Assembly (NCBI GenBank): GCA_964589775.1
Contig: CAZPUN010000035.1
Location: 7,987-39,986, forward strand
Source: an uncultured archaeon
GTDB lineage: Archaea; Asgardarchaeota; Thorarchaeia; Thorarchaeales; CAZPUN01
DNA length: 32,000 nucleotides
Direction of reading: 5' to 3'
In this document: positions 5,477-19,143 of the stretch, piece after piece
Numbering within the stretch: the first letter of the stretch is position 1
How the letters are laid out: each line of letters starts with the position of its first letter
Notes under the pieces: model-generated
The model's database searches: none
What the model saw: only the letters and a program-made list of their open reading frames with translations
Told to the model about the DNA's origin: nothing
Made by a program: the position numbers and the translations under genes

Positions 5477-6622
5477 TTAGATACATCTGTGAATGACTTC
5501 TGGGCCTTGTTCTTCGAATTCCTTCTTTGAGACCCACATCTTCTGGAATGTCTTCAGAGAAGCGATAATTGAACCACCAATCCATACAGAGTACTGTCGT
5601 TCAGGTGGAGCAATAATTCGAACTTCGACATTTTCAGGTACTAATTCGGAAATTTCCTTGTGAAGTCGCTCCTTAAGACCTGGGAACATTGTTGAACCGC
5701 CAGACAAGACAATGTTTGCATAGAGATCTCTTCGTAAGTCGACATCAGTTGCCTTAATCGCATCGACGATTTGTTCATCTAATGGAGCTGTATCAAGACC
5801 GATTGCACTTGGGTTGAAGAACAATTCGGGTGCAAGGAATCGCTCAGCACCAATTGTAATAACTTCACCGTCTGGTAACATGTATGGCTTGTCTACACCA
5901 GCTTTGTCTGCAACTGTCTTTTCACGGTCTGGATCTAATGCGACATAACACAGTTTTTCCTTAATATCACGTACAATTTCTTTCTCAGCACCACTGACGA
6001 AGTTGTAACCTCTCTGACGGAGTAATCTTCGGAGATATTCGGTAATGTCACGACCTGCAAGATCAATTCTTCGGATTGCGTGTGAAATTGCGAATCCTTC
6101 GAAGATAGGGACAATGTGAGTTACACCATCACCACTGTCTACAACAAGACCAGTAGTTCGTCCAGATGCGTATAGAGATAGAATTGCCTGAGTTGAGATA
6201 TATACTGCGGGTACATTGAATTTCTCAAACATCATTGAAGCCATTCTTTCACGATTCTCACGTGGGTTAAATGAAGCTTCAGTTAATAGAACTGGACTTT
6301 CACTTGGATCCACTTTCAAGTCATTGTAGAATGTATATGACCAGATTTTTTCAATGGCTTCCCAATCTTCAATAACACCATGTTCAATTGGATAGATTAG
6401 TCTCAACACACCTCGAAGATTGCTTGCCTCTTCACCAATGTAGTAATCACGAGTATAGTGATCTACATCGGACATAATATGTTCATATCTTGGATATCCA
6501 ATCAAAGTGGGCCAAACAGATCTGGGTTGGTCTTCACCAGCAAATCCGTTCTTAGATAAACCAGTTCCATTGTCTAGTACTATTGGCTTTGCGCCTAGAT
6601 ATTCATCCGGGATGTCTGCCAT
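5477..6622 (-). CDS. Asgard (Lokiactin-type) eukaryote-like actin
   Basis: DNGTGLSKNGFAG, YPIEHG, VLLTEA, LSLYASGRTTGLVVDSGDGVTH, LAGRDIT, LPDG, GGSTMFPG, APPERQYSVWIGGSI and C-terminal HRCI; colinear with actin over 381 aa; SD GGAGGA. Confidence 0.97.
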   Translation of the reverse strand: MADIPDEYLGAKPIVLDNGTGLSKNGFAGEDQPRSVWPTLIGYPRYEHIMSDVDHYTRDYYIGEEASNLRGVLRLIYPIEHGVIEDWEAIEKIWSYTFYNDLKVDPSESPVLLTEASFNPRENRERMASMMFEKFNVPAVYISTQAILSLYASGRTTGLVVDSGDGVTHIVPIFEGFAISHAIRRIDLAGRDITEYLRRLLRQRGYNFVSGAEKEIVRDIKEKLCYVALDPDREKTVADKAGVDKPYMLPDGEVITIGAERFLAPELFFNPSAIGLDTAPLDEQIVDAIKATDVDLRRDLYANIVLSGGSTMFPGLKERLHKEISELVPENVEVRIIAPPERQYSVWIGGSIIASLKTFQKMWVSKKEFEEQGPEVIHRCI

Positions 6623-7535: not shown

Positions 7536-8513
7536 TTGAAAGTAGAATTAATAAATACACAAAAATTCGACAGTAAAATTACATCAATAGATATCATAAA
7601 ATCAAAGGAAAATAAAAGTCATTGTATCATAATTGGGTTTGAAAATGGAACAATTGAGATATTTAAGTGGAATATAAAACAATTTGAACCAATTTATAAA
7701 AAGCAAACCCATGACTTGGTTTTTTCAGTTAATGCTACGGACATTGATATGGACGATAACGAAGAAGCGATAATCACATACATTTCAGGTGATATTAAAG
7801 TATTCATGAAAGATAAAGCAAATTTAATGGAAATCAGTTCAATTTCTCTTGGATGTACGCCAACCGCCATATGCTTAGCAAATGTTTCAAATGATAAAAC
7901 AAATGAATTAATAGTTTCTACACAAGACGGCGCTCTTAGAGCCTATGGCTGGTTTTCAGGATATTTAGATAAATTAGCTCATAAAGTATTAGATAAGCCT
8001 ATTGATATAATGAAACCAATTAAATCTTACACACAGAGATATTCGCGCATTTTAACTAGCCAAGAAAATATAATTAAAGCATATGTTTATGCAGATGATA
8101 GACTACATGAGATATATTCAATTAGTTTAGATGATGCTATAAAAGAAATGGAGATCGGCGATTTAGATCATGACCGAACAACAGAAGTAATTATATTAGA
8201 TACAAAAAATAATTTGAAAATATATAAGCAAATTCAGAAAGGCTTGGATTTAGTGTCTACTCTAAAATTGGATAAAAATTTTGAACGCATGAATATAATT
8301 AATTATAAAGGCCAGGACTATCTTTTATTATCAAAAGAAGATAACGCATCGATTTGTAAAATAAATAATAACAAAATTGAGCCTATATTAAAATTTAAAA
8401 TAAAAAACCATTATGAGCGAACGTTATTTACAACAATGGATGTGGATGATAATACAAAAATTCTAATACATACGATAGACAACATTATGGAGATATTTAA
8501 AATAAAGGATTAA
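7536..8513 (+). CDS. Cytosolic beta-propeller protein with FG-GAP-like repeats
   Basis: Repeated DIDMDDNEEAII / NVSNDKTNELIVS / GDLDHDRTTEVII loops with ~45-aa beta-strand periodicity; no signal peptide; TTG start after GGGGG. Confidence 0.7.
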   Translation: MKVELINTQKFDSKITSIDIIKSKENKSHCIIIGFENGTIEIFKWNIKQFEPIYKKQTHDLVFSVNATDIDMDDNEEAIITYISGDIKVFMKDKANLMEISSISLGCTPTAICLANVSNDKTNELIVSTQDGALRAYGWFSGYLDKLAHKVLDKPIDIMKPIKSYTQRYSRILTSQENIIKAYVYADDRLHEIYSISLDDAIKEMEIGDLDHDRTTEVIILDTKNNLKIYKQIQKGLDLVSTLKLDKNFERMNIINYKGQDYLLLSKEDNASICKINNNKIEPILKFKIKNHYERTLFTTMDVDDNTKILIHTIDNIMEIFKIKD

Positions 8514-9382
8514 GAGGGAAATTCAGAATCCTCTTCTGAAATAGATCTAAATACACTATTTTCATTATGATTTATTACAGATTTAACCTCAGATAATACG
8601 AGTGGAGTATTATTTAAGAACAGCTCAAATTCCACATAAGGTTTAAGACCTGAAGTCTCCAATTTTTTACCCAAAACTTGCTCAACTTGGAATACACCAG
8701 CAGGGTTTTCCATTTCGATATGAATACAGACAGGACTGTTCTTACCTTCAACAATTTCGACTGTTTTTATAGCTAATGCGCTTATACTATGAATATCGAT
8801 CTTACCCTTTGATGCGGGCAACCTACTACGTCCTTCAGTTAAGTCGCAGCCGTCCCCGACTTTGACTGCCCCGGCTTCAATTGTTAGACAGGGAATCTCG
8901 TCATCATGCGACATAATTCCATGTAATATTAGACTGAAAATATCAGTGCGCTTTTGAAGATCATCAGGATACAAGTCATTGACAACTTTCTCTATGAAAT
9001 CTTTTCCGAAAATTGCAGAATATGAGGGATGCCAAATTCTATGAACAATATGGCCAATATCATGCAAAAATGCAGAAGTGACAACAACAACGAGGGAATC
9101 ATCTAAAGACCCAATTCCTTCAGATACTACATTTGGCGAAATATGTTTAGATAGCGTTTTAAGAACCTTTATCGCATTTAAGGTTGCAATATGGGCATGT
9201 ACAATACCATGATCATTATAAGATAGACGATCTACTGCCATACGATTTCCAGATATGTAATAAGCATTTAATTTTTCATCAGATGATAACAGATTAAATG
9301 CGCGAATAGCCTTTGGAAAATCCTTAAGTTCATCTAGTATTTTTTTTCTATATTTTAATACGAATTTTGATGACACAATCAA
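8510..9382 (-). CDS. HD-domain metal-dependent phosphohydrolase (COG3294-like)
   Basis: YNDHGIVH, LHDIGH, MSHD, DGCDLTEGRSR, DIHSISA, NPAGVFQVE. Confidence 0.85.
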   Translation of the reverse strand: MIVSSKFVLKYRKKILDELKDFPKAIRAFNLLSSDEKLNAYYISGNRMAVDRLSYNDHGIVHAHIATLNAIKVLKTLSKHISPNVVSEGIGSLDDSLVVVVTSAFLHDIGHIVHRIWHPSYSAIFGKDFIEKVVNDLYPDDLQKRTDIFSLILHGIMSHDDEIPCLTIEAGAVKVGDGCDLTEGRSRLPASKGKIDIHSISALAIKTVEIVEGKNSPVCIHIEMENPAGVFQVEQVLGKKLETSGLKPYVEFELFLNNTPLVLSEVKSVINHNENSVFRSISEEDSEFPS

Positions 9383-9472
9383 TAGCCTCCCTATAAGGAC
9401 AAAAATCTATGTAAAAAAATATTATAAATTTTCCTAATTAATAAATAAAAAATAAAAAGAAGTAAAGAAGGA

Positions 9473-12400
9473 CTAATCACTAATTTCTTCCTTAAGTAGT
9501 AGTAGCAATGAATCAATCGCTGCGGAAGACTTGCGAATCTTCTTTTCATAATCTGCTTTCATCTTGTCATACACAGCACGAGTGATTGTACCGCGTTTCT
9601 TGTTTTTAATGAGTGTTTCAAGTCCAGCTTTAGCACCACTGATTTGTTGTTCATGAGTTTCAATATCTCTTGCAATATCCTTGTACTTCTGACCATATGA
9701 TTCAAGTTCCTTACGAACAACTGGTAGTTCCTTAGATATTTCTTTCAATCGAGTATTTATGTCAGATTTTCTTGCACGATATTCAGCACGAGTTATCTTT
9801 CTTCGTCTCAAGTTCTCATTCATCTTATCAAGCTCAAGGTTAAGCGCCATTTTATCGGCATATAATTCAATGAACTTCTGAATGAGTTCTGGAGGAGCAC
9901 TAGTAGTTCGTGCAGTTGTTTCATGTGATTCTTCTGAAGTCGTTGGAATGATCTCGGTATGTCGCATTACAACATAGATTAATGCTACAAATCCGACAAG
10001 TAAGCTGAATAATAGTGGTCGAGCCCACACACCAGGGATAGTGACAACATATGTAATATATGGTGCATAATCGCCATAGCCTGTAGTATTAAAGTAATCG
10101 AAATAATATCCTTTTTCAAAAGGATAATAGTATATTCCTGAAACTTTTGGTGAATCAATGACAGATACATAATCAGGAAAGATATAGTTAATTCTGTGGA
10201 ATCGGATAAGTGTATTCATTAATTGTGGCACTTTGACATTAAGAGTGTAGCCGGTACCATTTGGCTTGGCGTAAACACTAAGAGGTGTTTTGAAGAATAG
10301 ATGGAAAGTATAATTCCAACCAGGTTTTAGACCATCTAATAGAAGGTCTCTATTGAAGTCTAAATCAAATGTTGCAGAAGCATTCTTGGGGAGACTGTCT
10401 TCGGGCTTTGAATTAGGTAGAATTCCGAGCTCATCATACACCTTAAAATCATACCAATATGCAGGGACAAGAATTGTATATCTGTTTAATGTTGCAGTGC
10501 CTACATTTCTTAGGGTTATGACATTATCATATACAACCCATCCCCATGGATCAACACGAATATTTGTGGTAATCTCAGCAATAACTTTTGTATGCGATGA
10601 TGTGGTGTAAAATGCTGAAAATTCTACGAAACTAAGTGGATATATATTAAGACCTGCCATATTTCTAACGGCAATAGGTACATAATCGCCTTCAGGTGCA
10701 GTAACTTTACATGTTGCATTCTTAATGACGTATGGAATTGTGGGCCACTTATAGAAACTAAACTCATAGCGTGGATTTTGTGGATCCTCGACATAATATT
10801 GTACATCACTGTACACGGCAATAAATTTGAATTGGTATTTCTTTAGTGGATACAATGGTTCAGGAAACATAACTAAGTATCGCGAATAATTAGATGTGGG
10901 AGTTAATTTCTTTACAACTATGTTTTCCATTGAGATTGTTGTAGCCCATACAGTTCTTAGGTATTTAGAATAATTCAAAGGAATAAAGACATAAAATGAA
11001 TAAACTGGCTCTGAGCCATTATTTTCAATAACAAATAGATCGGATACTTGGAATAATTGATAAACTTCAATATGAATTTCACGAAATGCATCGATTGATA
11101 AGCCAGGTTCTGCTTCAAATGGATGTTCAATTGTAATGTTGAGCAATAATGGAGTTGTTGTTTCATTTGATGCATCTGTAGCTCGAATATAAATATGATG
11201 AACACCCAACTCATATTCACGCGGATCAAAATCAAAATGGAAGACATCATGTTCTGGGCCATAGAACATAGTAGTCCAATTTCCATCATCAATTTTGATT
11301 TCAGCTATCGAAACATAGTCATTATCTGTTGCATTTATTTTAATGGTTGTAAGTGTATTTATCATGGTGTTATTTGCCGGACTGATAATAGAGACTTCGG
11401 GTAATGTATTTACTAAGAATGACACATGATAGGGATTATCGAACGAACTATGAGCACTTGGGGCATCATTAAGATCATCCGATGGGGAATATGCAAATAC
11501 AAATGTATAATTTAACGTGTTATTTAGCAGATCGATTCCATTTGAATTATGACTCTTTAAGTCGATAACATATTCTAATACAGTGTATGCACCATTATCA
11601 GTACCATTAGCAGAGATAATTCGTGTCTGATTTTCGAATGGAACACGAGTATAATAGCCAACACCATATTGTTCAGAATAAACAATTTGACTTAATCGAG
11701 CTGGATTAATGCTAAATACAATATCTTGAATTTTAATTGATAAGCAATAGATAGTGAATATTAAAGGAAGCCCATAAAATTTAGACTCTGTAGATACATA
11801 ACCTTTCTCAGGTGGAATAAATACATTACGTACTTCACCGACGCGCATGCCCAATAATCCTTCATAAAATCCTTCGATAACATTCGGATTCGAAAGATTA
11901 ACAGTTAGTGGAGAATAAGAATATTTGTCCAATCCGGCGGCCATTCCAATAGATTGAATTGAAGTATCAAATATAGTACCATTTGGAAATCGGCCTACAT
12001 AATCAACGGTTATTTCATAAGGGGCTTTTGCGCGCAATACTGTACTATAAGTGTCATTTGGAGAATATCCAGTTATGAGGTCTAAACCCTCAAAGCCAGT
12101 ATTACTTAGAGATGTAGTTCCGTTTGTCCAACCAAAGGTAATAGACCCTGAAGTCGGAGCACGCAATGCAAGATAAAGATATGTGCCATTTTGCTCAGCC
12201 CAGACTTTAATACCGGATACATTATCTGTAAATGACGCCTTATATTCATATGGATCTACAATTCCATCAGCATAACCATAATGTTTGTATACATATGGAA
12301 TGCTCATGTTTATTGTCCCAAAAGAATCAGATGGTATGGGAGTTTTATTATTTATTGCACTATTGGGTAATGAGGCATTCATTTGTGCCCCAGAGTAACC

Positions 12401-12478
12401 CAAGGTATTTAGGAAGAGCGCTACGAATATAATTGTTATAATTAAACGCTGCTTTGAGTGGTTCAATTTCCTCGGCAT
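9473..12478 (-). CDS. Ribophorin I (Ost1/RPN1)-like type I membrane protein with N-terminal DOMON, FKBP and Ig-like domains
   Basis: Signal-peptide-like MPRKLNHSKQRLIITIIFVALFL favours the ATG at 12478. RPN1-like motifs IRVDPWGWV, VYDELG, LKPGWNYTF, YIFP; one TM (RPLLFSLLVGFVALIYVVMR); charged helical tail. Confidence 0.75.
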   Translation of the reverse strand: MPRKLNHSKQRLIITIIFVALFLNTLGYSGAQMNASLPNSAINNKTPIPSDSFGTINMSIPYVYKHYGYADGIVDPYEYKASFTDNVSGIKVWAEQNGTYLYLALRAPTSGSITFGWTNGTTSLSNTGFEGLDLITGYSPNDTYSTVLRAKAPYEITVDYVGRFPNGTIFDTSIQSIGMAAGLDKYSYSPLTVNLSNPNVIEGFYEGLLGMRVGEVRNVFIPPEKGYVSTESKFYGLPLIFTIYCLSIKIQDIVFSINPARLSQIVYSEQYGVGYYTRVPFENQTRIISANGTDNGAYTVLEYVIDLKSHNSNGIDLLNNTLNYTFVFAYSPSDDLNDAPSAHSSFDNPYHVSFLVNTLPEVSIISPANNTMINTLTTIKINATDNDYVSIAEIKIDDGNWTTMFYGPEHDVFHFDFDPREYELGVHHIYIRATDASNETTTPLLLNITIEHPFEAEPGLSIDAFREIHIEVYQLFQVSDLFVIENNGSEPVYSFYVFIPLNYSKYLRTVWATTISMENIVVKKLTPTSNYSRYLVMFPEPLYPLKKYQFKFIAVYSDVQYYVEDPQNPRYEFSFYKWPTIPYVIKNATCKVTAPEGDYVPIAVRNMAGLNIYPLSFVEFSAFYTTSSHTKVIAEITTNIRVDPWGWVVYDNVITLRNVGTATLNRYTILVPAYWYDFKVYDELGILPNSKPEDSLPKNASATFDLDFNRDLLLDGLKPGWNYTFHLFFKTPLSVYAKPNGTGYTLNVKVPQLMNTLIRFHRINYIFPDYVSVIDSPKVSGIYYYPFEKGYYFDYFNTTGYGDYAPYITYVVTIPGVWARPLLFSLLVGFVALIYVVMRHTEIIPTTSEESHETTARTTSAPPELIQKFIELYADKMALNLELDKMNENLRRRKITRAEYRARKSDINTRLKEISKELPVVRKELESYGQKYKDIARDIETHEQQISGAKAGLETLIKNKKRGTITRAVYDKMKADYEKKIRKSSAAIDSLLLLLKEEISD

Positions 12479-12702
12479 CCCGTGTATTTTTTTGTGATAT
12501 ATATGATAAATATGAATTTTAATAATCATACAAATTTGATTTTTAATAATCGAATCAAACTTAGAAGTTTTGAGGTGTTACGAAATTAAAAGGTTTTCGT
12601 TGCTAAATCTGATTCACACACATTTAAATTAATCTATGACAAACATCATGGAAAATATTTTTAGATGTTTCTTCACTTGCAGTAATGAGGAGTGCATGAA
12701 AG

Positions 12703-13680
12703 ATGATAATGATATTACTTGCAGGCATATTTTCAGTGATAATTGCATTGGGACTTATTCCATTTACATTTGGAAAACTGAAAGAACGTAAAATGTATAC
12801 CAAAGACATGCATAAACCGGGACAACCAGAAGTTCTAAAAGAAGGCGGCGTAGTGATCTTATTTGGCATAATTGTAGCGCTATTGCTAATAATAGGTATT
12901 AAGACATTTTCAGGAGAAATAATTAACAGTGCATTATTAGCATCTGTAATTTCTATTCTGATTGCGGGACAAATGGGGATTTTAGATGACATACTTGATT
13001 TTAGCCGATTAGTAAAGGTGTTCATACCATTTACAGCTGCCATACCATTAATGGCACTAAAAGCAGGAAATACAACAATGCAGCTCCCAATCATTGGGGT
13101 AATAGATCTTGGAATAATATATCCATTGTTAGTTGTACCCTTAATTATAACATTTGTAATAGATTCAACAAACATGCTTGCAGGCATGAATGGTCTAGAA
13201 TCAGGACTTGCAATAATTAATGGCGTTGGAATCTTAATATTGTCAATAATAAAAGGGTTTAATGACGCTGCAATCGTATCGGCCACCTTAATTGGTGCTA
13301 CACTTGTATTTTTCAAATATAACAAATATCCCGCAAAAATTTTACCGGGAGATGTTGGAAGACTGCCCCTTGGCGCAACTATGGCAACTGCAATTATTTT
13401 AGGAAATATGGAAAGATTTGCGATTTTTATGTTTTTATTATATTTCATTAACTTTATTCTCTTCATAGTACTTACAATTAAGGTAAAACGAACTGGAATG
13501 GAATGGCCAAAATTCGCAAAAGTAAACGATGATGGAACTTTGACTGCACCGGGTCCATATACAGTATACTGGATATTACCATACTTTAAGAAGGGGATCA
13601 CCGAAAAACAAAACGTATACGCAATCATGACATTACAAGCTATCATTGTATCTATTGGATTAATAATATCATGCATTTAA
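12703..13680 (+). CDS. UDP-GlcNAc:dolichol-phosphate GlcNAc-1-phosphotransferase (AglH/Alg7/DPAGT1-like, GT4 family)
   Basis: Polytopic membrane protein with KDMHKP, GILDD, NMLAGMNGLESG (DPAGT1-type NxxAGxNGLE rather than bacterial DGLDGL) and YNKYPAKILPGD. Confidence 0.87.
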   Translation: MIMILLAGIFSVIIALGLIPFTFGKLKERKMYTKDMHKPGQPEVLKEGGVVILFGIIVALLLIIGIKTFSGEIINSALLASVISILIAGQMGILDDILDFSRLVKVFIPFTAAIPLMALKAGNTTMQLPIIGVIDLGIIYPLLVVPLIITFVIDSTNMLAGMNGLESGLAIINGVGILILSIIKGFNDAAIVSATLIGATLVFFKYNKYPAKILPGDVGRLPLGATMATAIILGNMERFAIFMFLLYFINFILFIVLTIKVKRTGMEWPKFAKVNDDGTLTAPGPYTVYWILPYFKKGITEKQNVYAIMTLQAIIVSIGLIISCI

Positions 13681-14705
13681 AATTCATTTTCTATTTTTTC
13701 TTTAAGATATTTAGATACAAAAGATAACCCCCAACGGCTCAATGCTTGTTGCTCTGCTCTTTTTCTGATTTTTTTAAATTCAAGCAATTGTGATTTCCAA
13801 GGTTCTTCTTTATAACGCGGGTCCAATAAAAGTTCATCAATCTTTTTCAAATCAGCATCTGTTAAATTCATAGCTGGAAGTTGGTAATCCTCAATATCAG
13901 ATGCATATACACCGATCCATTTTGCATCAGGAGTTACTAAATCAGGAATATGTGCAGAATTGCGACTGCCATAAACAATTACGTTTGCGATATGCATCCC
14001 CCAAGGATCTGCATCGGTAAATATGAAACATTTTAGTCCTAGTTCCTCATTTAATCGCTTGATAATCCGCCGAGCTGAACGAGGAGCTTGACCGCCAAGA
14101 TGAATTAGTATTGCGTTCATACTCTTCCAAATACTCTCTTCAATTAATCTAGAGAACATACCACCGGATTCGATAGCTATGACAATTTGCGCATTTGTTT
14201 TAATAAATTTAGAATTTGTAATAGAGGGCCCAATAGAAAACCCATCTGGATTAGATGAAAGATTTACAGATTTTCCTTCAAACCCATGAACTGTGTATTC
14301 AATAGTTAAATCACCAAAAATAGCAGAACGCTCTTCAGGGAAAATACCAAAAGATTCACGAGGTACACCTAAATACGCCTCAAGATCAGTAACAATACGG
14401 TCTGATTCATCTTGATCTTTAAAATTTACACCATACCCTTTACTCGAATAATATAAATCACGCAGAGAACTCGTTCTATTATTTTTTAATAATCGGTATA
14501 CATAATATGCGGTCCACATAAATTGATGGAAATTCTTTGCATGCCGAATGTTTCTTGAATCTTTAGTTGATTTAAGATCCCCAACTTTGAATTTTCCTTC
14601 ATCAGGTAAAAATAATACATTCTTAGAGCTTCTATCAGGTAAAACTATTTTTGGGTATTGCCCATTGTTTATATCATTAAGTATTGAATTTGCAAGTTCC
14701 TTCAA
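13677..14705 (-). CDS. top6A: DNA topoisomerase VI subunit A
   Basis: LRDLYY catalytic Tyr motif, TOPRIM IAIESGG and FTDADPWG, AEQQAL; start uncertain. Confidence 0.95.
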   Translation of the reverse strand: MKELANSILNDINNGQYPKIVLPDRSSKNVLFLPDEGKFKVGDLKSTKDSRNIRHAKNFHQFMWTAYYVYRLLKNNRTSSLRDLYYSSKGYGVNFKDQDESDRIVTDLEAYLGVPRESFGIFPEERSAIFGDLTIEYTVHGFEGKSVNLSSNPDGFSIGPSITNSKFIKTNAQIVIAIESGGMFSRLIEESIWKSMNAILIHLGGQAPRSARRIIKRLNEELGLKCFIFTDADPWGMHIANVIVYGSRNSAHIPDLVTPDAKWIGVYASDIEDYQLPAMNLTDADLKKIDELLLDPRYKEEPWKSQLLEFKKIRKRAEQQALSRWGLSFVSKYLKEKIENEF

Positions 14706-14718
14706 TTTTAATAAAATA

Positions 14719-16218
14719 TTAATGATTATCCGCCTCCAAACGAGTTAATAATTTATTGAGCTCATGTTCTGTGGGTTCGTGGTCATAAAGAATATAGTAA
14801 GCATATTTCAAGGATTTTCTCAAGTGCTGCCGTAATATCTTCTGTTGTTTCAAAGAATGCTGTACAGTTGATTCACCAACTATCATTTTTTCCAATTTTG
14901 AAAGACATTTAGAAGATATTTTGATTCCAGAATCATAGATCTCAGGAATAGTAGCTATTGCAGTTTTCTCAATATCTCTAAAAGGTACATGTGTAGAACA
15001 TATATGAAATAAAAATATTGGATATTTTTCTTTAAAAATGCGTTTATTAAATTTTAATCCTTTTATAATATTATAAAATACATCATCAGATTGAGAATAG
15101 ATAAGTGGAACTCTATTTGCAAATCTAATTAATTTAGGTTCATTATTAGAAGAAAATTTTTCACTGATAAATGCTATACATTCAATAATAAATGGATGCC
15201 CATGATGCGAACTAGGTTGAGAAATTTCATAAACAAACTGTTGTGATGAATACCTATTTTTAATAGATTCGGCAAGAAGTTTTTTTCCTAAAGGACTAAG
15301 ACATTTTGCATCTGGCTTTGGAAAGTCGAATTTGGAAAGCTCTTTAAAGATAGAGTAAAGAGTGTTTTGTGAAAGATCATGAACCTTTATATTAGGGGAT
15401 ATATTTACAAATTTGAGAAATTTTTTTGCAGTAGAAACACCCACGCGCTGGAAAGTAGATGTGAAAAATTTGAGAATTGTCGCATCATTATCTTCTTGTG
15501 CATATCGCATAAATGATTCAAAATCAATTCCATGAGGATGCGGCTTGCATTCTGGCGGACAATAAGGCATAAGTTTAGTAACACGTTCATATTTTAGAAT
15601 TAATTTGTCATTCTCAATAAATTTTAGAGAAAGGTAGGGGGCAATTAGTGCTGTTAAATTGAGATATTCGAGAATTTTTTGCCTAGCACGAACATAATCG
15701 CCTTTCGCATAAACTCTTACAGATGTACCAATCCAATTCTCTGTATTTTTGACCTTTTTCATTTCTTCAATAATCGGCTCATTATTTTTAATATCGATCT
15801 TAATTTTGTAATAGTATCGAAATATGCCATCAACAGACGTTTCTATTTCAGCAGGCATATTTGTAGAAATTTGTGAGTATAAGATAGCCATTGTGACACC
15901 CATACCTAAAGCGCCACGAGACTGACGATAACCGAATTTACTACCATAAAAAACTTTTCCAAACACATAAGGTACATTTTCAACAGGAATTCCACTACCA
16001 TTATCAATAACAGAAATTACAATAAAATCAGTATTTTTAGAATCAATCGTTAACAAAATATTGGGTAATCGCCCAATAGATTCGCAAGAGTCTAAAGAAT
16101 TATCAATAAGTTCTTTTACAATAGTGAATAAAGACCTAGACGGATTACTATAACCAGCCATTTGTCTATTTTTGTAAAAAAACTCTGAAGGACTCATTGA
16201 TTTATAGTTGGATTCCAT
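14719..16218 (-). CDS. top6B: DNA topoisomerase VI subunit B
   Basis: SPSEFF, KELIDNSLD, DNGSGIP, QSRGALGMG (GHKL), KPHPHG, RFANRVPL; ATG at 16218 follows GGTGG (GTG at 16230 is an alternative). Confidence 0.95.
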   Translation of the reverse strand: MESNYKSMSPSEFFYKNRQMAGYSNPSRSLFTIVKELIDNSLDSCESIGRLPNILLTIDSKNTDFIVISVIDNGSGIPVENVPYVFGKVFYGSKFGYRQSRGALGMGVTMAILYSQISTNMPAEIETSVDGIFRYYYKIKIDIKNNEPIIEEMKKVKNTENWIGTSVRVYAKGDYVRARQKILEYLNLTALIAPYLSLKFIENDKLILKYERVTKLMPYCPPECKPHPHGIDFESFMRYAQEDNDATILKFFTSTFQRVGVSTAKKFLKFVNISPNIKVHDLSQNTLYSIFKELSKFDFPKPDAKCLSPLGKKLLAESIKNRYSSQQFVYEISQPSSHHGHPFIIECIAFISEKFSSNNEPKLIRFANRVPLIYSQSDDVFYNIIKGLKFNKRIFKEKYPIFLFHICSTHVPFRDIEKTAIATIPEIYDSGIKISSKCLSKLEKMIVGESTVQHSLKQQKILRQHLRKSLKYAYYILYDHEPTEHELNKLLTRLEADNH

Positions 16219-16267
16219 AAAATCCACCACATAAAAATTAAAAAGATTTAAAATAAAAAAATGGGTA

Positions 16268-16855
16268 TTATTTAGGTTCGGGAGGTCGTTCCCAAATTTC
16301 TAAATCTTCAATTTTCATCTGACGCCGTTGATCTTCCAGATAACGATATACTGTTTTATGTGGAGCACCTTGAATAAGCATCTCGATTGCATGTTTTGCA
16401 ATACGGAGCTCACGATAGGTTCCAATAATTGCGGTTGTATATCCATAAACTGATACAAAAGTTCCGGTAGTTTCTTCGATTATTCGTTTTGTCTTTCCGC
16501 GCTCGCCAATTATACGTCCTCTAATTCTGTGGATTCGAGCTTTTGAATTTCCGAGAATATCACGAAGAGAAATTATTTCAAGATAATAATCATCATCCAG
16601 TAGTTTAAATGCGCGCTCAGGACTGAAACCGCGACCTATCGCCTTTATAATGTCTCGAGCTTTCCAAACTTTTATTGGATCTTCATTGTTTGGTTTTGGA
16701 TGGATAATAACTAGACCAGTTCTACTATCAACTCTAATGATTGTTTCACTATATGATTCAATTTGTTTTTTTACGGTGCCATCTTTACCTAAAATAACAC
16801 CAATTCTGTCTTCAGGTATCCTTACCTGCATTTCAGCTTGCATAATAAATCCCAT
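16268..16855 (-). CDS. KH-domain pre-rRNA processing protein Dim2/Pno1
   Basis: RIGVILGKDG, KAIGRGFSPE, GRIIGERGKT, GAPHKTVY; ATG at 16855 or 16843. Confidence 0.92.
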   Translation of the reverse strand: MGFIMQAEMQVRIPEDRIGVILGKDGTVKKQIESYSETIIRVDSRTGLVIIHPKPNNEDPIKVWKARDIIKAIGRGFSPERAFKLLDDDYYLEIISLRDILGNSKARIHRIRGRIIGERGKTKRIIEETTGTFVSVYGYTTAIIGTYRELRIAKHAIEMLIQGAPHKTVYRYLEDQRRQMKIEDLEIWERPPEPK

Positions 16856-16856
16856 C

Positions 16857-17633
16857 TTAATCGCTTTTTCCAATCACATAATCGTATACTTCTTCATATG
16901 AAGGAATTCCAATACCTAATTTATCGAAAAATCGCAATATATTTTTTATATCGCGTGCAAGGTAGCGCTCGGAATATGGATGACGGATAGAGACAGCTTG
17001 TGAAACATCAATGATTACTGGCTCATTATTTCTCATCAAGATATTATATTCACTAAGGTCTCCATGAACAAGTCTTGCTTTTGTATATGCTAGTCTAATT
17101 TGATCAATGATTTCAGACATCAGTGATTCTGGATCATTAATCTCAGAGTCCTTTAATTGACGTGCAGGCGACCCATCAACATGAATATATTCCATTACAA
17201 GAACATTTTTCTCCACAGCAATAGGTTTTGGAACTCTTACACCAGCAGAATAAAACTCTTTGAGGTTACGATACTCTTTACTAGCCCACAATGGAATTAA
17301 TACTCGAGGTGTTCGCTTTGACGCTTTAAATCTAGGATCACCCGCAATATAATCCCACATCCAATCAGGTTCCGCAGTAGTCATTCTATAAATTTTAACA
17401 ACAACCGGTGAGCCATCAGCCTGTCTTGCTAAGTAAACACCAGATTCTTTACCAGAGCTAATAACACCAACCATTTCATCAAACACATTATGATTGAGTA
17501 ATTTATACAAAACTTTTAAGGTATAAGAATCTAAGACTGCTTCAATTACCTTAAATTGAGATTTGTCTTTACGACGCTTGAGATTGTCTTCAAATTTTAA
17601 ATCAGCAAACTCGTCAAAAATATCGTCAGACAA
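16857..17633 (-). CDS. rio1: RIO1 serine kinase/ATPase
   Basis: ISSGKESGVY, VKIYR, KEYRNL, LVMEY, LVHGDLSEYNIL, IIDVSQAV. Confidence 0.95.
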   Translation of the reverse strand: MSDDIFDEFADLKFEDNLKRRKDKSQFKVIEAVLDSYTLKVLYKLLNHNVFDEMVGVISSGKESGVYLARQADGSPVVVKIYRMTTAEPDWMWDYIAGDPRFKASKRTPRVLIPLWASKEYRNLKEFYSAGVRVPKPIAVEKNVLVMEYIHVDGSPARQLKDSEINDPESLMSEIIDQIRLAYTKARLVHGDLSEYNILMRNNEPVIIDVSQAVSIRHPYSERYLARDIKNILRFFDKLGIGIPSYEEVYDYVIGKSD

Positions 17634-17648
17634 TTAAACATCACCAAA

Positions 17649-17969
17649 TTATAGGTCAGATAAATATCCTTTTCTCTTCAACCAATTAATATCGGTTTTT
17701 AAATATCGCCAGACAACATCGCCCTTATCAGTGCTTTGAAAGTCCCAAGGCACTATGATGACAATGTCACCAACTCTAAGCCATACACGCTTTTTCATTC
17801 TACCAGGTATACGTCCAACTCTTATATGACCATCAGCACATTTTACTTTTACACGGTCATGACCCAACATTTGTATAACAACACCTAATATTTCACCTTC
17901 TTCAGGGTTCGGAACCCTAACACGACCAGTCGTTTGTGATGCCGCGTCATTTTGTTTTTTCTTAGTCAA
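17649..17969 (-). CDS. eif1a: Translation initiation factor aIF-1A
   Basis: MLGHDRVKVKCADG...RIPGRMKKRVW...GD...PWDFQ...KGDVVWRY. Confidence 0.96.
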   Translation of the reverse strand: MTKKKQNDAASQTTGRVRVPNPEEGEILGVVIQMLGHDRVKVKCADGHIRVGRIPGRMKKRVWLRVGDIVIIVPWDFQSTDKGDVVWRYLKTDINWLKRKGYLSDL

Positions 17970-18032
17970 ATTGAGATATAGCCTCCAAAATATTTTAGGA
18001 AATAATATGAAAAGGATTGTGAATTATATAAA

Positions 18033-19118
18033 TTATAATTCCCGTTCTTCATCTTTTATAAAGAAAAGCCTGCCTTTTAAGTTTACGCTATGTACAGATT
18101 CACCTGGAGAAAGAATTAATGGAACTTGTTTGCGATCAATATCAATGATTTCATAATTTCCGTTATCCATTAATTGGATACTGGTAGGGGTCACCGAAAG
18201 AACCATTAATGTTCGCGTTTCAGAGCCATCCTTGAGAAAAACAATTTTTTGAAACTTGTTACTATCAATTGATACAGAAAACGTATTATGCTCGACAAGA
18301 TTTAGACAAACTAATCTTTTTCGTTCATTGCGTAAAACCATGGATGGAATTCGGTCAACTTCGATAAAATCACCCTTTCTGAAGCGAGGAAGCCGTACAA
18401 CAACAGTTCGTAAATATCTTCTTTCACCACTTTTAGGGTCGACTCCAACTAACTTGAAGGATTCTTTTATCGTCCCTAAGAACTGATCTCTTATTTCAAC
18501 AGCAATTGCTTTACAAAGATGCTCAGAGCCAACATCAAGAGTTAACCCGCCAAATCGCTCGTGAGTGATTTCAGAAATATATGCTTTTGAATCATGACCA
18601 TAAGCATTATTTAACATACTATATATTATAGAAGTGATCTCTCGTTCTTCACTCTCATCTAATTTACGTTCATCTGCACGAATTTGTAAAATAGATTCAT
18701 GATGCCCGCCATGTCTAAGAGAACAACTACGACATAAAGAGAATTCGATTTTTATAGGCACCACATGTTTTTCAGGATAAGGGGGTATTAATCGATGTGT
18801 GGTCCCATAAATAACAACTTCTGCCGTAGCATGAGTGTTATCGTGCTCCAAAATTTTTACGGTAATTGTATAATCCTTATTTTTGATATACTTGTCTCTT
18901 ATTATTTTTGAAACTGCCATTTCTAAGTGTTCAACATAATTAGTTGTCGTAGGAACAATCCACTTACCTCTATGCCAATAAGAATAACAATCCCTACAGA
19001 TTTTTAATGTGATATTAGGAATTGGATTAGACAAGGGGTGATCGTGTTTGTAACATTCAATACATTGCCCATCAATTAATGGGCCTTCACCCCCACAAAC
19101 ATAGCATACATTAGGCAT
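18033..19118 (-). CDS. nmd3: Nmd3 family large-subunit biogenesis protein
   Basis: Four CxxC pairs (CYVC, CIEC, CRDC, CRSC), GGHHESILQIR, KLVG, RLP plus OB tail; ATG at 19118 after GGGGTG (19133 is an alternative). Confidence 0.88.
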   Translation of the reverse strand: MPNVCYVCGGEGPLIDGQCIECYKHDHPLSNPIPNITLKICRDCYSYWHRGKWIVPTTTNYVEHLEMAVSKIIRDKYIKNKDYTITVKILEHDNTHATAEVVIYGTTHRLIPPYPEKHVVPIKIEFSLCRSCSLRHGGHHESILQIRADERKLDESEEREITSIIYSMLNNAYGHDSKAYISEITHERFGGLTLDVGSEHLCKAIAVEIRDQFLGTIKESFKLVGVDPKSGERRYLRTVVVRLPRFRKGDFIEVDRIPSMVLRNERKRLVCLNLVEHNTFSVSIDSNKFQKIVFLKDGSETRTLMVLSVTPTSIQLMDNGNYEIIDIDRKQVPLILSPGESVHSVNLKGRLFFIKDEEREL

Positions 19119-19143
19119 ATCAAAACACCCCATAATGGATCCT

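Follow-up and report, generated by a model that had tools for sequence, protein, structure and literature searches.

Ribophorin I, or OST1, counts among the translocon components of Asgard archaea that are regarded as "eukaryotic signature" proteins, and what it does is not well understood, even in eukaryotes. The OST1 of strain MK-D1 ("Ca. Prometheoarchaeum syntrophicum") has 607 amino acids (aa) and consists of a signal peptide, two outer beta-sandwich domains, a transmembrane helix, and a cytosolic four-helix bundle. The structure of that cytosolic domain has been solved (8WHN), and the domain pulls down ribosomes in vitro, like its human counterpart (PMC11417166). The eukaryotic RPN1/Ost1 proteins (human 6S7O and 8B6L; yeast 6EZN and 6C26) belong to an 8-9-subunit oligosaccharyltransferase (OST) complex in the endoplasmic reticulum (ER) membrane and carry neither FKBP nor DOMON; yeast Ost1 also lacks the cytosolic bundle. 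In human cells, a separate membrane FKBP, FKBP11, joins ribosome-bound Sec61/OST-A translocons, and its authors favor an adaptor over a catalytic role (PMC12804085). Here, we describe an OST1 with an FKBP domain of its own, encoded on the minus strand of a 32,000-nucleotide (nt) stretch of DNA (contig CAZPUN010000035.1 of assembly GCA_964589775.1, positions 7,987 to 39,986; hereafter, the window) from an uncultured archaeon of the order Thorarchaeales. The protein has all the parts of the MK-D1 OST1, with ~430 further residues placed after the signal peptide and ahead of the OST1 body. No such head is present in MK-D1 OST1 or in the other listed Asgard OST1s from outside the Thorarchaeota, which have ~560 to 660 aa.

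An OST1 with a composite N-terminal head

The gene lies in one unbroken open reading frame (ORF) of 1,018 codons (9473..12529 [-], from the ORF translation), to which the residue numbers below refer unless model numbering is stated. A preliminary description of the window, made without database searches, had read this frame as a signal peptide, a DOMON domain split by an FKBP domain, an immunoglobulin (Ig)-like domain, two ribophorin I-like domains, a transmembrane helix, and a helical tail. Pfam and AlphaFold2 (AF2) models agree with this order. The positions also agree closely: the FKBP domain, previously put at ~11730 to 12040, maps to 11726 to 12031, the OST1 part begins at ~11100 in the AF2 model rather than ~11090, and the modeled transmembrane helix occupies 9953 to 10039 where ~9960 to 10025 had been given.

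The C-terminal ~560 residues, from near residue 477, are a complete ribophorin I/OST1. Pfam Ribophorin_I stays below its cutoff on the fusion protein, so the family call was made by profile and fold. An exhaustive phmmer search with residues 455 to 870 found 59 relatives, mostly of 550 to 630 aa. The profile of these relatives, against which the fusion protein scores 563 bits, spans residues 24 to 605 of the 607 residues of human RPN1 (E = 6.6e-42) and also matches yeast Ost1 (E = 1.1e-22) and the 8WHN crystal structure (E = 3.2e-50). The AF2 model of residues 455 to 1018 (predicted local distance difference test [pLDDT] score of 89.3) shows two beta-sandwich domains, a helix at residues 831 to 859, and a four-helix bundle at residues 880 to 1017. 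When this model was compared with the PDB using Foldseek, the best eight matches were all RPN1/Ost1 chains of solved OST complexes (6.6e-30 to 8.9e-18), with the next match at 1e-7. By both profile and fold, therefore, the homology to the eukaryotic proteins extends over the full length at ~15% identity, and the earlier reading of the C-terminal half as ribophorin I holds. A profile search of the source genome found no second full-length OST1.

The cytosolic tail can be described more precisely than as the helical tail of the preliminary description. A helical tail is present, and it is the ribosome-binding-type four-helix bundle of OST1, not a generic coiled coil: the tail alone matches 8WHN (E = 7.6e-9), and 8WHN superposes on the tail of the AF2 model with a template modeling (TM) score of 0.86 and a root mean square deviation of 2.0 Å. 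Judged by fold and homology, the bundle is of the kind that binds ribosomes in human and MK-D1 OST1. Matches of the tail to coiled-coil families (IFT57, SMC, and similar) were disregarded as spurious.

With its signal peptide, outer domains, single transmembrane helix, and cytosolic tail, the fusion protein has the topology of a type I membrane protein. Between the signal peptide and the helix there are 26 N-x-S/T sequons, as had been counted before, compared with 8.2 ± 2.5 in composition-matched shuffles; the tail has none (0.7 expected). This asymmetry fits an exported, heavily glycosylated ectodomain.

In the head, a DOMON-fold sandwich holds an FKBP domain in one of its loops, and an Ig domain comes next as a spacer. 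When the whole protein was scanned directly with Pfam and NCBIfam, Pfam named only FKBP_C (PF00254; residues 168 to 250, nt ~11780 to 12028; E = 6.9e-13; 49.2 bits against a cutoff of 21.1) and the Ig family Big_7 (residues 377 to 446; E = 1.1e-6), and neither Ribophorin_I nor DOMON was named. The Pfam DOMON model (PF03351) matches weakly in 8 of 23 orthologs (best E = 7.5e-4). We built an AF2 model of the head (residues 62 to 472) on the 23 orthologs (pLDDT, 84.5; predicted TM score, 0.80) and compared it exhaustively with PDB representatives by structural alignment. Alignments with DOMON superfamily members, over ~140 to 175 residues, span model residues 14 to 312 and thus cross the FKBP insert; the sandwich itself is formed by model residues ~12 to 105 and ~207 to 312. 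The best matches were EbdC, the gamma subunit of ethylbenzene dehydrogenase (2ivf_C; Z = 15.3; 167 residues aligned), and NxrC (7b04_C; Z = 14.4), followed by the DOMON domain of dopamine beta-hydroxylase (4zel_B; Z = 12.9), CBM9 (1i82_A; Z = 12.1), and the CDH cytochrome domain (1d7c_A; Z = 11.9). Foldseek missed the split DOMON, as Ig/FN3 and FKBP matches dominated its results for the 411-residue head; the exhaustive search recovered it. This DOMON differs from these matches in that it is split by a whole inserted domain and has no conserved heme ligands. The sandwich is probably sugar binding. Model residues 313 to 410 form the Ig domain (Z = 12 to 13).

The inserted domain of ~100 residues resembles SlyD (Z = 12.6), human FKBP11 (9ygy_A; Z = 11.9), and FKBP13 (Z = 11.7; 31% identity). 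By sequence, it is closest to the archaeal short FKBP MtFKBP17 (1IX5; E = 2e-12), with which it shares a bulge insertion and all pocket residues (Y177, F187, D188, V217, I218, F221, Y244, and F258). We take these positions to be Y26, F36, D37, V55, I56, W59, Y82, and F99 in FKBP12 numbering. The archaeal short FKBPs, including the SlyD family, are cytosolic and have an insert-in-flap (IF) chaperone domain, whereas this FKBP is exported, lacks the IF domain, and sits inside another domain. As far as sequence tells, it is the most canonical and most archaeal-like version of the head FKBP, and prolyl isomerase is its putative activity.

Distribution of the fusion

We searched for the head in 400 genomes of the phylum, 86 of them from a sister family of the same order (Thorarchaeota) and 313 from ~30 other families. 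The head was present in 82/86 sister-family genomes, mostly in frames of ~985 to 1,000 aa, and in 0/313 of the others, where only FKBP-only or Ig-only matches below 70 bits occurred. OST1 itself was found in 374 of the 400 genomes. Outside the order, the listed OST1 frames have ~560 to 660 aa and none has the head, which bears out the earlier statement that OST1 normally lacks a long N-terminal extension. The genomes listed for the order have one strong OST1 match apiece, and the matches with listed coordinates fall in the ~990-aa fused frame; in two genomes (G330 and G389), the head and OST1 matches abut in a single frame of 988 aa or 984 aa.

Relatives were also found on 13 public contigs of metagenome-assembled genomes (MAGs). 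Most match over nearly the full length, and those that are classified are mostly labeled Thorarchaeota. An alignment of 17 sequences is continuous through all domain junctions. The source lineage is a separate family of the order, and its fusion protein and those of the sister family share only ~32% identity. As the same fusion is found on both sides of this divide, the architecture has survived deep divergence, and the source genome extends it to a divergent second family. The integrity of the junctions, which the preliminary description had flagged as a possible weakness, was judged from these comparative data: with the head in mostly ~990-aa frames across 82 of 86 independently assembled genomes, the compared sequences identify the fusion as a clade trait of the order and not a misassembly.

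Two genomes also contain stand-alone heads, at L021:930-2690 (+) in G336 (the same sequence as L017:5830-7590) and at L022:934-2721 (+) in G317. These proteins, of 586 and 595 aa, have the DOMON-FKBP-Ig arrangement, an extra beta-rich segment, their own signal peptide, and their own C-terminal transmembrane anchor. Both genomes encode the fused OST1 as well, and the stand-alone copies are very divergent (best identity, 41 to 43%). In a quick tree, with the root assumed to lie on the family of the source lineage, they occupy long branches on the side of the sister family. This placement suggests later duplicates, but only tentatively, given the long branches and the assumed root.

We found no description of the fusion in the literature outside subscription-only papers, in line with the preliminary description, which knew of none. 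Public databases already contain the architecture, but NCBI gives these proteins no other names than "FKBP-type peptidyl-prolyl cis-trans isomerase" or "Ig-like domain-containing protein." Under such names, the OST1 of Thorarchaeota may escape name-based surveys, and the present finding corrects this annotation.

Proposed role and alternative explanations

We think it fairly probable that this sole OST1 carries a head that acts as a co-translocational folding aid at the site of glycosylation. OST1 would lie beside AglB/STT3 and SecYEG in the cell membrane with its tail docked on the ribosome, and the head would therefore be held at the outer face near the emerging chains. There, where chains emerge and are glycosylated, it would display a proline isomerase or chaperone together with a probable sugar-binding sandwich and would help nascent chains to fold during translocation. 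The head may in this way couple folding to N-glycosylation, as the preliminary description had proposed; its further label of an ER-like quality-control function exceeds the evidence.

One chain would then do what human cells do with FKBP11 at the OST-A translocon. In both cases (FKBP11 structures 9N9J and 9YGY), an FKBP domain is placed on the far side of the membrane beside OST, and a cytosolic part contacts, or here would contact, the ribosome. FKBP11 differs in being a separate small protein that is recruited by substrates and has, besides a C-terminal transmembrane helix of its own, a basic helix that binds the ribosome, whereas the FKBP described here is internal to OST1. The fusion protein thus does not belong to the FKBP11 type and could be a functional analogue only. 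The likeness is probably convergent, since the FKBP of the fusion is closest by sequence to archaeal FKBP17.

Several points weigh against a folding aid at the glycosylation site. The association of OST1 with AglB is extrapolated from eukaryotes, as we found in the literature neither an isolated archaeal OST1-AglB complex nor biochemical data on archaeal OST1 in an OST complex. The Pfam Ribophorin_I model (PF04597) gives the fusion protein 13 bits (E = 0.036), under the 25-bit cutoff, although this is the only match to the model in the genome. As 26 of 47 aligned relatives match the model at an E of up to 0.01 and the best phmmer relatives, tested singly, score 27 to 62 bits, the shortfall reflects the sensitivity limit of the model and does not counter homology. 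In the FKBP domain, most sister-family orthologs have Glu or Gln at the Asp37 equivalent (D188) and a shortened 40s loop/bulge, so catalysis may not be the conserved role; most also have Leu/Leu and Tyr at other pocket positions. The DOMON domain has an invariant His83 and, in 83% of sequences, a His360; the two may form a metal or cofactor site. Human FKBP11, for its part, is thought to be an adaptor with a buried pocket (PMC12804085). Finally, the anchored stand-alone copies indicate that the head can work without OST1.

The STT3/AglB of the source genome is encoded elsewhere (L020:115-2841 [-], on G000:C13). This 908-aa protein has an extra C-terminal domain of ~170 residues (735 to 908), and the ESM Atlas model of this domain matches EB_dh/DOMON/CBM9 folds (TM scores of 0.82, 0.71, and 0.67 to 0.72). 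The domain is present at full coverage in hundreds of homologs of ~880 to 925 aa, whereas the matches of solved eukaryotic STT3 chains to the STT3 ectodomain profile are confined to its first ~146 positions. By these models, both STT3 and OST1 of the source lineage carry DOMON-like sandwiches. A comparison of the two using hhalign gave a probability of 7% with the single sequence and 55% with the profile, which is weak, and we claim no homology; a complex prediction for the head and the STT3 extracellular domain scored 0.01, which is no answer and is evidence neither way. A more far-reaching and doubtful idea is that the Thorarchaeales OST is a glycan-aware, folding-coupled translocon, in which the sandwiches of the AglB/STT3 C terminus and the OST1 head would bind lipid-linked or newly transferred glycan while the FKBP would act on the same nascent chain. 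If this idea is true, a single prokaryotic complex would represent a forerunner or convergent analogue of the lectin- and prolyl isomerase-assisted folding of glycoproteins in the ER, for which malectin is paired with ribophorin I and FKBP11 with OST-A.

Among the rival explanations, the one that survives best, though we regard it as rather unlikely, sees in the head a general extracytoplasmic foldase tethered to the membrane, an archaeal counterpart of bacterial PrsA or PpiD, with OST1 as a mere anchor and nothing specific to N-glycosylation. The stand-alone heads, which two genomes encode alongside the fused gene, speak for it, since with a signal peptide and an anchor of their own they make membrane tethering alone appear enough for some function; it is also in keeping with the small number of FKBP domains in the genome, which is only three. 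Yet nearly all sampled genomes of the order have retained the fusion in their only OST1 despite divergence to ~32% identity, the fusion gene is paired with an AglH-like gene (see below), and the stand-alone copies, on their long sister-family-side branches, are consistent with later duplicates, subject to the assumed root of the quick tree.

It is improbable that the FKBP domain is instead a noncatalytic scaffold that recruits another factor to OST or the translocon, as proposed for human FKBP11 with CCDC134. The pocket of FKBP11 is buried by its partner, and its authors argue against an isomerase role (PMC12804085); the substitutions at the Asp37 equivalent and at other pocket sites in most sister-family orthologs would suit such a function. 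The FKBP of the fusion protein itself, however, has every canonical pocket residue and is nearest to an active archaeal FKBP, and there is no known partner.

A far less probable alternative gives the DOMON domain a heme or other redox cofactor and the head a part in electron transfer or sensing, with no role in folding or with glycans. Its best structural matches are indeed heme-b proteins (EbdC, NxrC, and the CDH cytochrome domain), and His83 and His360 are conserved. Against this, the non-heme DOMON/CBM9 members match almost equally well (Z = 12 to 13), and the gene context is glycosylation, not respiration. In the reference heme DOMONs, the axial ligands are Met paired with Lys or His. The DOMON segments of the head have no column in which Met, Lys, or Cys reaches 60% conservation, so that heme binding as in EbdC or CDH is unlikely. 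An artifact, with two genes joined through misassembly or a lost stop codon, is refuted by the same fusion in independent assemblies: the ~985- to 1,000-aa frames in most of the 82 sister-family genomes with the head, the 13 MAG contigs with relatives (most of them matching nearly end to end), and an alignment that crosses every junction.

Throughout an archaeal order, OST1 has been joined to a folding-enzyme domain and a ligand-binding sandwich and has retained both despite deep divergence, which is natural evidence that OST1 sits where nascent chains are reachable. The fusion is a tractable single-chain model of how folding factors and OST are linked, a link for which the human FKBP11-OST-A translocon has recently provided an example. 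In addition, it supplies concrete constructs for asking whether archaeal OST1 works with AglB and the ribosome.

Gene model, neighborhood, and source genome

The features of the gene are collected in Table 1. The start at 12478 (M18), which the preliminary description had used, is the likelier one, because the database gene call is 1,001 aa and a TATA-like run lies ~20 to 28 nt upstream of this ATG.

Table 1. Features of the OST1 fusion gene and its head-to-head neighbor, in window coordinates; residues are those of the 1,018-aa frame
Feature	Coordinates	Strand	Evidence
Coding sequence, OST1 fusion protein, 1,001 aa from M18 (open frame to 12529)	9473..12478	-	ORF, database gene call, TATA-like run
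Signal peptide, residues 18-48: basic start, hydrophobic core, SGA-Q	12386..12478	-	Translation; also in orthologs
DOMON-fold beta-sandwich, first half, residues 74-166	12032..12310	-	AF2 model and structural search; Pfam DOMON weak in 8/23 orthologs
FKBP domain in DOMON loop, residues 167-268; archaeal-type bulge kept, without IF domain	11726..12031	-	Pfam, structural and sequence comparison
DOMON-fold beta-sandwich, second half, residues 269-374	11408..11725	-	AF2 model and structural search
Ig-like domain, Big_7 type, residues 375-472	11114..11407	-	Pfam and structural search
OST1/ribophorin I tandem extracellular beta-sandwich domains (two), residues 477-829	10043..11101	-	Profile, AF2 model, Foldseek
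Single transmembrane helix, residues 831-859	9953..10039	-	AF2 model; sequon asymmetry
OST1 cytosolic four-helix bundle, homologous to ribosome-binding domain 8WHN, residues 880-1018	9476..9892	-	Profile match, AF2 model, Foldseek
GT4-family polyprenyl-phosphate GlcNAc-1-P transferase (AglH/ALG7/DPAGT1-like), head-to-head neighbor	12703..13680	+	Pfam, solved relatives, locus comparison

The neighbor of the fusion gene matches Glycos_transf_4 (E = 4.1e-29), and among solved structures it is most closely related to human DPAGT1/GPT (E = 1.5e-14), which catalyzes the first step in the synthesis of the N-glycan lipid carrier. We compared the gene order NMD3, eIF1A, RIO1, Pno1-like KH protein, topoisomerase VI B, topoisomerase VI A, AglH, OST1 fusion, and HD-domain protein (8510 to 19133 in the window) with eight Thorarchaeota loci. 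The order is conserved across the nine loci except for NMD3 (3/9) and the topoisomerase VI genes (8/9), and the AglH/DPAGT1-like gene stands head-to-head with the fusion gene in 9/9, with a divergent promoter region of ~220 bp between them. A long ORF at 12624..13676 (-), located between the topoisomerase VI A and fusion genes, has no family match and is a shadow of the plus-strand gene.

The source genome is 2.16 Mb and ~97% complete. About 5 kb from the STT3 gene, a 184-aa frame (G000:C13:8527-8844 [-]; L031) has a weak match to the OST3/OST6 family (E = 1.4e-4, below the cutoff). A 334-aa protein encoded on G000:C21 (L003:1201-2205 [-]) has a signal peptide, a domain that matches only the first outer domain of OST1 (E = 1.5e-11), a single transmembrane helix, and, on the cytosolic side, a winged-helix DUF7343 domain. 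In this layout it resembles a regulator anchored in the membrane, with a putative sensor domain of the ribophorin type. The window is Asgard archaeal, and its genes include those for a eukaryote-type actin, topoisomerase VI A and B, RIO1, the Pno1-like KH protein, NMD3, and eIF1A. The actin gene (5477-6622 [-]; Pfam Actin, 441 bits) lies near a gene (7536-8513 [+]) whose product has BBS2/BBS7/DDB1-like beta-propeller matches.

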